Shown here: piece by piece, positions 39,001-64,000 of the stretch
Numbering within the stretch: position 1 is the stretch's first letter
Layout of the letters: the number at the start of each line of letters is the position of its first letter
Assembly (NCBI RefSeq): GCF_003991155.1
Contig: NZ_CP031297.1
Length of the DNA: 64,000 bases
From: Escherichia coli
Lineage (GTDB): Bacteria; Pseudomonadota; Gammaproteobacteria; Enterobacterales; Enterobacteriaceae
Reading direction: 5' to 3' (one strand)
Program-made: the position numbers

Positions 39001-42000
39001 CGGTCTCATGGCCTGATGTGAAGGCATACGCTGTACCTTGAACGCCAGAGACAAAATTAGGAGCTGACCCTAGGCGAGGCTCCACGATTTTCACCTTAAC
39101 GGAACACATGTCAGCTACCTTACTTTGTCCGTTCACCCACGTCGGGCAACCCCATTCATTCTTGTAGAACTGATAGGTTAGGCGACCGTCTTTGTCATAC
39201 AGAAGCGTGAAATTGGCACCCAAATCAGTCAGCGCTGACTCAATGGAAACTTTCACATGTGAAAGAAATTTGGCCTGAGCGTCTGCCGGTGAAACTGCTT
39301 CGTTAGCAGGCATCCAAGCGATCAAGCTATTGCGAGCGCCATGCTGTTTGGGGCCGATAGCCCAGTTCGCAAGGTTGACCAAGCCACCTTGCCAGTCGGT
39401 CATTCCGAGCTGAGGGGACATGTAGCCAGACAGCACGTAGGCTGCCCCAAACGTTTTGGTGTCGGTCAGACGCTCCAGCTTGTCACGCGGAACAGAAGCG
39501 TCTTGGATGCCTGTTACCAGGCCACCGGCCTCCGCGATGTTGTAAGCGCGACTGTGATTGGTTTTGTACGCTGTGGGTTCGTAACTGCTGGTGGATGCAC
39601 AGCCAGATAGAGCTGCTACAGCCAGAGCCACGGTGGTGATTAAAGCCTTTTTCATGTTGTTCTCCGTTCTTACCTGAGTTGAATCTGATTTACTTCGATA
39701 ATATCACAGCATCAAAAAATGCAACCATAAAAGACAAAAAAAAGCCCCTCGGGCGAGGGGCAAAGGTTTGGGCTGGGTTATGCTGCTTTTGTTTTCTCGG
39801 CTTCGTCTGCGATTTCCTTGTCGCCGGTTGCAGATTCCGGAGCGGCTTCGGCCACTTCACCTTCTTTGCCTTTGCTGTGGGCGGAAATGCGAGCCCGTTT
39901 CTCGATGCCGATGATTCGACCGGCCAGCTTGATGAGGCGTTGCTGCCATTGGTAAGTGGCGTCGGTGCGCTGCTTGCTGGTCAGTACGGTGTTCAGCCAG
40001 AGAGTGTCAACGATCCCCATCAGGGTATCCAGTTTGCGGATCAGGTGTGCAAACTGAGCAACCTGAGGAGAGTTGATCTCGATGGTGTATTCATTCGGGT
40101 TGGTGTAGCCGGGCATCATGTCGATGCCGTTGTCTTCCATCAGCTTGTTGAGCTGGGCGGTAGCTTTGTCCAGGTCTTCGGAGACCTTGGAAATGTGTTC
40201 CAGGATGACGGTTTCAACCTGGTCGATTTCGTCCTGCTCACCGATGATGCGAAGGATCACGTCGATGGAGAACAGGGAGTTGGAAACTCGCTCAAAGCTG
40301 CGTTCCATGACGCGCTGAGCTTGGAGGCTGTTTACTTTCAGAACTTGCTTGAAAACAGGGCGAGAGTAGTGGTTGCTGCGGTCGTTGTTTGTGTCCAGTG
40401 CTACTTGTGCTTCTGCCATTAGAGATACTCCTAAATTTGAGGTACAGATAAACGCACTGGAAAGGATAAATGCGGTCAATCTGTAACCTGACCTCTCGAA
40501 GTGCCCAAAATGGACAGTTACAGCGTTTTCTGTTTAGCAAAGGTGAGCTATATTTGAATCATCTTAGTCGCTCTGCGGCTATAGGTGAGATAGCTGGTCT
40601 CCGAAAACAAACAGCATCTAGTCTTATGCCGTATGGCATTACTTAACCCCAAGCCGGGGGCTTCTCCCGGTTTTCGGGTGTTGCCCCTGTTTTTTTTACA
40701 TAGGAGCAACACCATGCACATCATCACTTTCATTGTAGTTCTGCTTGCATCTCTGGGCGCACTGTACGTAGGCGCGAAGGCATTTGCTTTTTCCTTCATC
40801 GTTCTCGCTAAAGTGTTCCAGCGTATCGGTTTGTTCCTTTGGAACAAATTCGCAGTTCCTGCAATGCGGTCTGTACAGGCCGTCATCAAAGAACGTGCTG
40901 CCAAGGCTGAACAAGCCAAAGCAGTCGTTGAACCTGAGGTAACTCAAGTTCAAGAAGTCGCTAAACAAGAACCTGACTGGGATTATCTCGAAATCCCGAC
41001 TTACCTTCGTAAGGGCAAGGAACTTGTTTGGTAATAACTGTCGCTGAGTAATCTTCGACACTTTCAAACCCATCGGGGCAACCATACCCCGACGGGGATG
41101 TTGCCCCTTTTTGCTTAGGAGCAACATCATGGAAATCGCTATCATCGCTTTGTGTATCCCTGCTGGTTGGGCAATCTCTCGTCCTTTCGTGAGAATCGCT
41201 GAATCGTTCGGTTACTGCTGATAGTCAACGCAAAGGGAGGGGGCAACCCCTCTCTTTCTGGTCAAGCCTCTGTGGCTTGTCCTCAAAGTCTTCTGGTGTC
41301 AGTTGGCTTTGACGACAAGCTACAGGGGGAATGTCGAATGCAACAGAATCTTCATGTTTACGACGATCACGCAGGCATCATCTATCTGGCTGATGGACGC
41401 GAGGTGAAATTTGATCCGAAACTGTATTCCAGCTCCTACCAGGCGCACAGTGAAGCAGTGAAGTGGGCCAAAGAAACCGGGGTCATTGGTCAAAACGACG
41501 ATGTGGTGATGTTCGTCCATTGAGGGAGTAGCCTCCAGGAGAGGCTACTCTCCTCGCTCCTTAAAAGTCTTCTTACTCATGGTGAATACCATCAGTAAGC
41601 AGATTTTGTTCTCTTCGGAGAGCGAAAAGTGCGATAGCTGGTCGCCAAAAACAAACAGCAAATTAACGTTAATTTACTAGCCCAACCGGGCGCATCCGCC
41701 CGGTTCGGGACGTGGTGCGCCTGTCACAATAGGAGCGCACCTATGTCTCAATACTCTCAATTCTCAGTAAGCAAGGTTTTCGGTATGCCCAGCATTCCGG
41801 AGAAGGTAACGGCCATCGGCTACGCTGACGGTTCAAACCCTTTCATCCCTGCCACTGATACCAACTACGTTTTCCGCAAAGAGTTTCTGCGAGAGGTCTT
41901 GGCCTATCTCAAAGAGCCTGGCGGTGACGCATTGTTCGTAACCGGCCCTACCGGGTCTGGCAAAACCTCAGGTATCACCGAGATCGCTGGTCGTCTCAAC

Positions 42001-63000: not shown

Positions 63001-64000
63001 AGTCTGGTTACATGCAGGAGCTGATAGAAGAAGGAAGCGCACAAGTTGTCGAGATGGAGCCCGGCTCCGCCGTAATTTACGGACTTGACGGCTAAGCCTT
63101 CTCAACTAACCCACTCGGGCGCATCATCCCGAGAGGGTGTGGTGCGTCCTAACCAAAAGGAATGCACTATGTCTAACTTTGAACAAGCTCTGGAGCGTAC
63201 TGACGGTAAAACACTGATTCTCAGCAATGGGAGTAAGTGGGCAGGCCAAGACCCGGACAGTATTCAGACTTTACTGGATGTCCTGGGTGACAACGTTCTT
63301 GACCCGATGTTTGAGCAGTATCACTGTTATCGCCCATACCCGTTTGAACCAATGGTGAGGACGGGGCGAAATGGCGAAATGTTCCAGCCTTGGCTTGGGG
63401 CAGCCTGCTTCTTTGGGAACTTCCTGACTGTCTCTCATGTTTTCAACATCATCACGAAAGATGACGGTGTTGTTGAGGCCTTAACAGAGGCGATCCGGAA
63501 GAATATGGCGACTGAACAGTACCAGCAGAATGCCTATGAGCGTTATGCCGGTTGGTTCTACGCTGAAACCAGCGAAGGGTTAAGGCTAGTCTCTCCAAGT
63601 GAGGCTGCCGACATCCGAGCTGGCGCAGTTTCAAAGCTGCGTTACCCAAGAAACTTCGAGGTTATGAAAACTGCGGTTCTCAAAGGTCCTCGATTTGATA
63701 CTGAATTAAGCCGCAAGGCTTCTTAACCCAAACATTAACCCCACGGGGGACATCGGTCCCTGAGGGGATGGTGTCTCCCTCTGAAATTAAGGAGATACCA
63801 ATGATTAAACAGCATTTTCAAAACGAACTGGTTAAGTGTGGATACCCGGATGATCTGACGATTGAGTACAGTCTCGGATACTGCCAGGGGGATGGCGTAG
63901 CCTTCTACGGGGATTTGAGCGTTGATGACGTCAAAGCTCTCATGAATCGCCTATTCAGCACTGAGCCCGGCCAAGTGGATGCTGTCAGCCGCGTGAAGAA

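Follow-up and report, generated by a model that had tools for sequence, protein, structure and literature searches.

A recurrent two-hairpin leader module, probably a bistable translational attenuator, in IncC plasmids and related conjugative elements

The window analysed here is a 64,000-nucleotide (nt) stretch of Escherichia coli contig NZ_CP031297.1 (assembly GCF_003991155.1), and its sequence is that of an IncC (IncA/C2) plasmid backbone. In the right-hand part of this stretch 23 genes are led by a recurring RNA module of approximately 65–75 nt that consists of two hairpins, the second of which covers the ribosome-binding site (RBS) of the gene that follows. We consider the module to be a portable, bistable, cis-acting translational-attenuator cassette that throttles the gene it precedes, and place the probability of this reading at roughly 0.6. 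The reading draws on the repeated architecture of the leaders, the three-way co-variation of their segments, their sense-strand specificity, their two-state energetics and their restriction to one family of conjugative elements.

Results

Architecture and detection of the module

The first hairpin (H1) comprises AA-CCC, 3–4 nt, an inner GC stem-loop in which a segment A pairs with its partner A', a further 3–4 nt, and GGG, and amounts to 26–33 nt in total and only some 9–13 base pairs. The second hairpin (H2) follows directly; its 5' arm is formed by segment B together with a C/U-rich stretch complementary to the Shine-Dalgarno (SD) sequence, and its 3' arm by the SD itself and the SD-to-AUG spacer, segment C. 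Folding of each spacer with RNAfold returned this layout for approximately 22 of the 28 long stop-to-start spacers. A strict H1 detector gave 18 matches on the + strand of positions 40600–64000 and 0 on the − strand, as against about 1 (maximum 5) in 60 dinucleotide shuffles and only 1 within positions 1–40599 of the window. For a search of the complete module, a covariance model (CM) was built from 87 modules drawn exclusively from elements other than IncA/C, its consensus structure being taken from per-sequence folds; RNAalifold gave no consensus on a MAFFT alignment of the 87 paralogous modules, in which the stems were misaligned. With filters off, the model produced 23 full-length + strand matches in the window (E values of 3.7e-10 to 1.8e-3), all lying within 40643–63803 and each finishing on a start codon (Table 1). 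The 40 kb tra region contained no full-length match, and the − strand of the window only weak echoes of the palindromic H1. A preliminary description, made from the sequence alone, had proposed about 25 such two-tier hairpin spacers. The repetition it described is borne out by folding and covariance model alike, while the number resolves into 23 canonical modules and about four variant spacers; the coordinates and strings it quoted were exact throughout, and those of its B/C pairs that are inexact differ solely by G-U wobbles.

The distance from the end of H1 to the AUG is 29–41 nt, and the module is thus anchored on the downstream start, not on the upstream stop. At the 5' end, conservation extends to AA-CCC and to some eight G-poor (7% G), U-rich bases ahead of it, but not to a stop codon in its own right; U at position −3, needed for a UAA, barely exceeds the background of the U-rich flank. 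Modules have a mean minimum free energy (MFE) of −31.6 kcal/mol and a predicted mean SD pairing probability of 0.75, and no open reading frame (ORF) lies within them. Rfam returned no match to the module in the window even at E ≤ 5, and nothing at the gathering score in four related loci. Nor does H1 pass as an intrinsic terminator, as no H1 is among the 24 terminator-like sites that a scan returned (18.6 ± 4.1 expected), and H1 continues into B, not into a run of U's. Among the spacers, only the hairpin at 49753–49782, within a variant spacer, qualifies as terminator-like.

Module-specific pairing and co-variation

Complementarity was assessed over 172 distinct modules from approximately 30 related conjugative elements by comparing the pairing of each module's own (cognate) segments with pairing to the segments of other modules, a control that holds composition and the generic G-run/C-run pattern constant. 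The mean B:C duplex was −11.6 kcal/mol for cognate and −8.0 kcal/mol for non-cognate segments (z = −20), that of A:B −13.6 versus −8.8 kcal/mol (z = −26), and that of the H1 loop with B −4.9 versus −3.0 kcal/mol (z = −16). When the permutation was confined within each element these excesses persisted, with z values of −14 (B:C), −18 (A:B) and −12 (H1 loop:B). Pairing of A with C, which is not expected, showed almost no cognate excess among the 172 modules. In the window alone, the cognate excess of B:C was significant at p < 1/5000 (permutation, 28 spacers). The earlier proposals that B and C are complementary gene by gene beyond chance, and that B can pair with either A or C, are therefore upheld, as both pairings are kept module by module in mutually exclusive folds, and a three-element (A, B, C) switch is supported. 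The accompanying remark that A is not universal also holds: at module 9 the 5' arm of H1 duplicates B (GGGGCTCC) and does not mimic C.

Orthologous leaders tell the same story at a single locus. Across 20 orthologous bet leaders, approximately 74% of alignment cells are paired in both the repressed (OFF) and the open (ON) fold, versus 38–61% with slid partners, and double changes number 26 versus 17.1 in shuffles for OFF and 14 versus 8.1 for ON (for example, GGUG/CACC becomes GGUA/UACC). Folds of the sense strand, in which 9% of pairs are G-U, are 3.1 kcal/mol more stable than those of the reverse complement (p = 4e-13), which argues that selection acts on the mRNA and not on duplex or antisense DNA.

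Two predicted folds and their energetics

In the predicted OFF fold, CCC is paired with GGG, A with A', and B with C. The ON fold, obtained by forcing the 16-nt RBS open, is predicted to be a one-segment register shift of OFF in which A' pairs with GGG inside an A:B helix, leaving CCC and the RBS free. For some modules the A:B form is itself the MFE fold: module 13 adopts this ON-like form, module 17 pairs A gccattac (55559) with B gtagtggc (55582), and module 21 pairs A tacaccaag (61943) with B ctttggtgta (61962).

Freeing the RBS has a predicted ensemble cost of 11.9 kcal/mol in H2 alone and 8.2 kcal/mol in the full module. Masking the first 3–7 nt, which contain the CCC, lowers this cost to 4.0–4.3 kcal/mol; with the first 9 nt masked it is 5.7 kcal/mol, and with the first 12 nt masked, whereby A is covered as well, it is 9.2 kcal/mol. 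These values indicate that the outer CCC:GGG stem is the lock and that A is an anti-sequestor, in agreement with the suggestion that the outer stem of H1 holds the structure closed. Direct-path barriers, calculated with pseudoknots ignored, were 19 kcal/mol from H1 to A:B, 22 kcal/mol from OFF to ON and 13 kcal/mol from ON to OFF. Taken with the costs, they suggest a switch that would not flip by itself and would persist once flipped.

Control by temperature had also been raised in the preliminary description. It appears unlikely, as the predicted cost of opening the RBS declines smoothly, without melting around physiological temperatures, from 12.4 kcal/mol at 15 °C through 9.6 at 30 °C and 8.2 at 37 °C to 7.3 at 42 °C, and H2 alone stands at about 12 kcal/mol; an RNA thermometer of the ROSE or fourU type was accordingly set aside.

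Position relative to upstream stop codons

The hairpin had further been described as abutting the stop codon of the preceding gene. This is true of approximately 6 of the 23 modules in the window and of 21 of the 172 in the family, and does not extend to the remainder: in 9 modules the stop lies 5–12 nt upstream, in 71 it lies at 13–40 nt, and in 71 no ORF ends within 40 nt, the last class including some modules behind long transcribed leaders. A stop 13–40 nt upstream is out of the ribosome's reach. Stop-distance classes do not differ in their predicted RBS-opening cost (Kruskal p = 0.65).

Distribution among related elements

Relatives were gathered with Bet as the handle, giving 85 loci and 1.43 Mb of sequence. 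Within these the covariance model found 287 matches at E ≤ 0.01, all on the bet strand and all in IncA/IncC/pAQU/SXT-like elements; approximately 50 phage-type bet loci gave no match. At about 10–30 copies per 20–40 kb, the module is present in IncA, in pVCR94, in pAQU-type Vibrio plasmids and in elements of Shewanella, Alcanivorax, Marinobacterium, Marinobacter, Paraglaciecola/Pseudoalteromonas, Edwardsiella, Azomonas, Comamonas, Methyloversatilis and several methanotrophs; an SXT-like integrative and conjugative element (ICE) of Vibrio furnissii carries it too. Matches finish on the bet start codon in the window, in IncA, in the pAQU-type plasmids and in other elements, and one lies directly upstream of bet in an SXT-like ICE (positions 9867–9937 of locus L031). 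Modules stand at almost every gene boundary of the mosaic accessory region that varies between relatives.

Genes and transcription of the region

The window is 100% identical, over the 12 kb tested, to AB571791.1, an IncC backbone integrated in a Salmonella Typhimurium chromosome, and approximately 700 IncC plasmids are near-identical to it. Positions 1–40 kb carry topB, traI/D, traLEKBVA, ISEcp1-blaCMY-2 and dsbC-traC...traN. The part to the right of 40.6 kb holds about 33 genes, all in one direction, among them vcrx087-like, AAA ATPase (vcrx089), vcrx090, ssb, bet, exo, DUF3150 and von Willebrand factor A (VWA) genes, two DNA methylases, a yfaE-like ferredoxin and a yfbR-like HD protein. Some 20 proteins of this part are without a Pfam family; a Pfam scan of 20 module-led proteins returned no RNA-binding or NusG-like factor, most having no family at all. 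Four start codons of AB571791.1 seem misannotated (40633, 55153, 62844 and 63768), since they fall inside or upstream of a leader module; from SD and module, the true starts were called at 40714, 55234, 62878 and 63801, respectively. A 30-residue hydrophobic ORF at 41129–41221 (+) (MEIAIIALCIPAGWAISRPFVRIAESFGYC), led by module 2, is unannotated and is kept in IncA, pVCR94 and a Shewanella element, so that it is likely a real small protein gene.

Operator boxes for the activator AcaCD and the transcription start sites (TSS) were placed by mapping the AcaCD boxes and 5'-RACE sites of Carraro 2014 (Table S3) onto the pVCR94deltaX sequence. A box (CGAAGTGCCCAAAATGGACAGTTACAGCG and relatives) lies at ~40497–40525 (+), with similar ones near 50148–50176 and 61548–61576, and the TSS falls some 34–36 nt downstream of each, at ~40560 for the first. 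H1 begins about 85 nt from the TSS for the vcrx087 homologue and about 66 nt for the vcrx114 homologue, which rules out H1 as a 5'-terminal stabilising hairpin; the conserved GCGATAGCTGGTCGCCAAAAACAAACAGCA repeats were likewise rejected as AcaCD boxes, the mapped box sitting at ~40497–40525. In the vcrx087 leader there is also a mini-ORF of six codons (MPYGIT*, 40626–40646, +) that terminates on the TAA abutting the CCC of module 1 and has no obvious SD. The region is read as long operons, according to the operon calls of Carraro 2014. Sigma-70-like promoter matches are strongly depleted over 44001–64000 on both strands (2 versus 14.4 ± 3.6 in shuffles, none in the spacers), a pattern that fits long operons dependent on an activator, and selection against promoters within them. 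A canonical bidirectional intrinsic terminator (AAAAAGCCCTCCTTCGGGAGGGCTTTTTCTTTTGC) occupies 61518–61552, directly after the 817-residue gene and just before the next AcaCD box; it surfaced as a weak ctRNA_p42d/Phe_leader look-alike.

A second repeat family was seen on the + strand, a transcribed leader element of about 60 nt (...GATTTTGTTCTCTTCGGAGAGCGAAAAGTGCGATAGCTGGTCGCCAAAAACAAACAGCA...) with a UUCG-type hairpin. It is present in every long (190–260 nt) spacer, an H1/H2 module follows each time, and an AcaCD box lies upstream of only 3 of its 7 copies. Its core, GNGRTAGCTGG (GCGGTAGC at ~58494), is one that we take to resemble the ops site of RfaH-type antiterminators. The copies probably correspond to the rptI repeats of Roy 2020 (PMC7498323). 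A structure of another kind precedes the gene at 41338 (41223–41337), where a very stable hairpin of about 30 base pairs (41259–41337) follows a GC hairpin at ~41234–41258.

Table 1. Modules, variant spacers and leader repeats in the window. CM E, covariance-model E value; fold, supported by the predicted fold; numbers after segment strings are first positions.
Feature	Position	Strand	Evidence and details
Module 1, leader of vcrx087-like gene (start 40714, not annotated 40633)	40643..40716	+	CM E 3.6e-6; fold; H1 ~40647-40676; B ggtgttgc 40677; C gcaacacc 40706; strings verified
Module 2, leader of unannotated 30-aa ORF (41129-41221)	41064..41131	+	CM E 1.9e-7; fold; H1 41069-41096; B gatgttgc 41097; C gcaacatc 41121
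Module 3, leader of AAA ATPase gene (vcrx089 homologue, start 41743)	41676..41745	+	CM E 1.8e-3; fold; H1 41681-41709; A gcgcatc 41690; B ggtgcgc 41714; C gcgcacc 41735
Module 4, leader of ssb	43626..43696	+	CM E 6.5e-9; fold; upstream stop TAA (43628-43630) abuts CCC
Module 5, leader of bet (start 44316)	44237..44318	+	CM E 8.3e-9; orthologous leaders in 20 elements; H1 44241-44272; B catggtgt 44273; C acaccatg 44311
Module 6, leader of exo (start 45368)	45301..45370	+	CM E 8.4e-9; OFF/ON folds; bet stop TAA abuts CCCC
Module 7, leader of DUF3150 gene (start 46578; Pfam DUF3150)	46511..46580	+	CM E 2.1e-5; fold; nearly a copy of module 3; preceded by leader repeat
Module 8, leader of VWA-domain gene (start 47940)	47872..47942	+	CM E 1.6e-4; fold
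Module 9, leader of gene at 51028	50962..51030	+	CM E 7.7e-6; folds
Module 10, leader of DNA methylase-like gene (start 51602; Pfam N6_N4_Mtase)	51530..51604	+	CM E 9.9e-4
Module 11, leader of yfaE-like ferredoxin gene (start 52552)	52482..52554	+	CM E 6.3e-5; stop TAG abuts CCC; B ggtcgcgctc 52519; C gagcgtgacc 52542 (one G-U pair); strings verified
Module 12, leader of gene at 52838	52772..52840	+	CM E 1.7e-5; fold; stop TAA abuts CCC
Module 13, leader of gene at 54007	53945..54009	+	CM E 9.7e-6; fold; stop TAA abuts CCC
Module 14, leader of gene at 54267	54206..54269	+	CM E 5.4e-9; fold
Module 15, leader of gene at 54812	54747..54814	+	CM E 6e-5; OFF/ON folds; preceded by leader repeat
Module 16, leader of gene with true start 55234 (annotated TTG 55153)	55164..55236	+	CM E 4.4e-6; fold
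Module 17, leader of dcm (start 55614)	55545..55616	+	CM E 5.8e-6; fold; strings verified
Module 18, leader of gene at 58592	58528..58594	+	CM E 2.1e-4; OFF/ON folds; preceded by leader repeat
Module 19, leader of 817-aa gene (start 59066)	59005..59068	+	CM E 1.4e-6; OFF/ON folds
Module 20, leader of gene at 61721 (vcrx114 homologue)	61662..61723	+	CM E 5.5e-4; AcaCD TSS ~66 nt upstream
Module 21, leader of yfbR-like HD gene (start 61996)	61928..61998	+	CM E 1.4e-5; fold; strings verified
Module 22, leader of gene at 63169	63105..63171	+	CM E 1.7e-8; OFF/ON folds
Module 23, leader of gene with true start 63801 (annotated 63768)	63734..63803	+	CM E 3.7e-10 (best match); OFF/ON folds; B tggtgtctcc 63769; C ggagatacca 63791
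Variant spacer, not canonical: lone terminator-like hairpin and U-run directly before SD of gene at 49798	49737..49797	+	Fold; terminator scan; no CM match
Variant two-hairpin leader without AACCC	50337..50400	+	Fold; no CM match; tgtgtgc pairs with gcacaca at RBS of gene at 50398
Two variant hairpin-rich spacers before genes at 57300 and 57805	57240-57299, 57732-57807	+	Fold; no CM match
Leader-repeat copies	40565-40625, 41600-41665, 46437-46500, 50270-50335, 54680-54745, 58470-58530, 61600-61660	+	

Discussion

As we envisage it, OFF would be the ground state of the module and would form during RNA synthesis. The 5' AACCC would pair with the GGG 26–33 nt downstream and so clamp the inner GC hairpin (A:A'), after which B and the C/U-rich stretch would pair with the SD and the SD-to-AUG spacer. 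In ON, a shift by one segment would let A' take the GGG and A take B, thereby freeing the CCC and the whole RBS. The module-specific, co-varying A, B and C would prevent cross-pairing among the approximately two dozen modules carried on polycistronic AcaCD-driven transcripts, and would also avoid long identical DNA repeats. The net effect would be that accessory, anti-defence and recombination genes (hde, ssb-bet-exo, methylases and many orphan genes) are highly transcribed and yet weakly translated, with the conserved CCC:GGG clamp as the point at which the block can be lifted. Candidate openers of the clamp would be a terminating ribosome at an abutting stop (in a minority of cases), a 30S subunit on standby at the G-poor 5' flank, a helicase, or a factor with affinity for the hairpin or for AACCC.

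Several observations weigh against this interpretation. About five long spacers of the region are without a canonical module. The native RBS-opening cost of 8.1 kcal/mol exceeds by only 2.3 kcal/mol the 5.8 kcal/mol obtained with shuffled upstream sequence, and in 76-nt context no difference was found from nine tra-side genes (7.7 kcal/mol, p = 0.43). As A largely offsets H2, strong repression is not proven by thermodynamics alone, and we do not offer the opening cost as proof of it. Moreover, the predicted barriers would preclude spontaneous flipping. With the absolute energies weakened by these controls, the claim of repression rests on co-variation and on the literature.

The pertinent precedent is the bet gene of SXT/R391 ICEs, for which the work of Garriss, Poulin-Laprade and Burrus (2013, J Bacteriol 195:1991), as summarised in PMC4542580, is said to describe a translational attenuator directly upstream, with strong attenuation, high transcription and low translation. 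The likeness is one of element family, of gene and of an SD held in a hairpin, and module 5 is the orthologue of that leader. For vcrx089 of IncC, a structure sequestering the RBS has been predicted (Roy et al. 2020, PMC7498323), and both published loci carry covariance-model matches. By analogy, we infer that the other members act like the bet leader. The published accounts found concern single loci, whereas here there are about 23 copies per plasmid, with a clamp, an A element, a register shift, co-variation and a wide spread; our literature searches returned single-locus statements only, and no account of a repeated cassette, a clamp, an A element or three-way co-variation. The plasmid-wide and family-wide repeated design thus appears to be undescribed, and the module is best filed as a multi-copy bistable variant of the RBS-sequestering translational attenuator.

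A more far-reaching version of the attenuator, which we regard as doubtful, would have all of the approximately two dozen leaders locked until something engages their invariant, single-stranded U-rich-AACCC foot, making them a regulon-wide, hysteretic memory switch set separately on each mRNA. The engaging agent might be 30S/S1 on standby, a ribosome that has just terminated, or an AACCC-binding factor encoded by the element or the host; engagement would release the GGG, A would capture B, and the mRNA would be left translatable for a long time.

It is also conceivable, if unlikely, that the GC hairpins serve mainly to protect polycistronic mRNA from RNases or Rho loading, or to mark processing sites, with A:B merely keeping the RBS usable, so that the modules would be structured but translatable rather than repressors. 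The considerable stability of the modules would suit such a role, as would the small net cost over shuffled controls that results from A offsetting H2, the roughly eight G-poor single-stranded bases ahead of every H1, the depletion of sigma-70-like sites and the reading of the region as long operons. However, stabilisation or insulation needs neither module-specific pairing that extends over the SD up to the AUG nor three-way co-variation; H1 is not at the 5' end of the primary transcript; and the sole tested member, bet of SXT, is reported, in the summary cited above, to hinder translation strongly. Translational control and a contribution to mRNA stability or insulation may well go together.

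The preliminary description favoured a relay, in which a ribosome terminating at a UAA that abuts H1 melts the clamp, A captures B and the next RBS opens, so that translation of each gene is conditional on the preceding one. We find this quite improbable as the general mechanism. Masking of the first 3–7 nt, roughly the footprint expected of a ribosome holding UAA in its A site, does bring the predicted cost from 8.2 to about 4 kcal/mol, the barrier from ON to OFF would keep the opened state, and a real stop sits directly on the CCC in the minority of modules enumerated above. Against it, the upstream stop is at least 13 nt away, or no ORF ends within 40 nt, in 142 of 172 modules, and modules also head transcription units behind long untranslated leaders (TSS 66–85 nt upstream of H1). 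It is the AUG that follows which fixes the position of the module, and not the preceding stop; the U at position −3 hardly rises above its flank, opening costs are alike in abutting and non-abutting classes, and masking of 9–12 nt covers A too, cancelling the benefit. Such a relay may at most be a special case within the stop-abutting subset.

Kinetic control by delayed folding, whereby A first captures B on the nascent RNA and the RBS is briefly free before H1 and B:C form, seems to us very unlikely. Transcripts ending 14–20 nt past H1 are predicted to favour a CCC-free A:B form by 3.5–5.5 kcal/mol in 83–94% of modules, while the full-length RNA prefers OFF by about 8 kcal/mol; in addition, the 5' part of B finds a complement in the H1 loop, as the cognate excess over all modules and within elements attests, and this loop could be a toehold, and the ON state, once reached, would be held by the barrier of about 13 kcal/mol. 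Yet H1 forms first and is clamped, and the pseudoknot-free barrier of about 19 kcal/mol from H1 to A:B is too high for the approximately 0.4 s that pass before C is transcribed.

That the modules act as DNA, by analogy with REP/BIME, attC or T4 PeSL cassettes (as cassette boundaries, as substrates for single-strand annealing by Bet/Exo, as priming or recombination sites, or as hairpins in the transferred single strand), is scarcely credible. Their presence at nearly every gene boundary of a mosaic, variable region would fit, as would the finding that Bet/Exo break repair anneals short intergenic repeats (rptI-IV), down to 7 identical bases (Roy 2020, PMC7498323), but all 23 matches in the window and all 287 in the family run in the direction of the genes, G-U pairs give the sense strand a significantly more stable fold than its complement, the pairing covers the SD and adjoins the AUG, the variable A, B and C reduce DNA identity between copies, and neither promoter-like sites nor an integron-type core sequence are present (a cognate enzyme was not searched for).

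Returning to the translational attenuator, it resembles ermC and cat attenuation, in which at least four serial complementary segments, the last with SD and AUG, form 1:2 and 3:4 in the ground state and an alternative register frees the RBS. The present module differs in being without an internal leader peptide or drug-dependent stalling, in having as its alternative fold a nested shift (A:B around A':GGG) and not 2:3, and in that no more than 12% of modules (21/172) have an upstream ORF ending at them. In the maturation gene of phage MS2, studied by van Duin, an upstream complement reportedly sequesters the SD at equilibrium while a competing local hairpin can hold that complement temporarily, and the hok mRNAs of plasmid R1, studied by Gerdes, are said to show metastable folding with coupled co-variations. 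The type of evidence is the same, namely one segment co-varying with two alternative partners, but those are single elements per genome, whereas the module repeats before about two dozen genes, and its computed barriers give no clear support for a spontaneous kinetic window. Between the cistrons of long polycistronic mRNAs there are also the phage T7 RNase III hairpins and REP-type stabilisers, which are internal-loop hairpins, some of them modulating downstream translation; H1, with its 9–13 base pairs, is short for RNase III, and the SD/AUG pairing and A:B of the module have no counterpart there. Finally, the PeSL of T4-type phages are promoter-bearing mobile stem-loop cassettes between genes, and like the module they are short, conserved and intergenic and recur ahead of numerous small orphan genes where the genome is plastic. 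The module differs in having no promoter, and its function would lie at the RBS.

IncC and IncA plasmids and SXT/R391 ICEs rank among the main vehicles of multidrug resistance, and the genes led by the module include the hde anti-restriction/anti-CRISPR operon (vcrx089-090, ssb, bet, exo), DNA methylases and many orphans. For annotation, the module marks true start codons, and it has exposed an unannotated conserved small gene. If one leader design sets the translation of all module-led genes, it would explain their high transcription and poor expression, and the AACCC:GGG clamp would be a single control point and a possible point of intervention. The modules would then also supply over 170 natural versions of a small two-state RBS switch, with their three-way co-variation as a data set for RNA-switch design and for tests of standby binding and reinitiation in bacterial translation. 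Should the more tentative memory switch hold true, anti-defence and recombination proteins would be produced in a coordinated burst on the arrival of IncC, SXT and pAQU-type elements in a new host.

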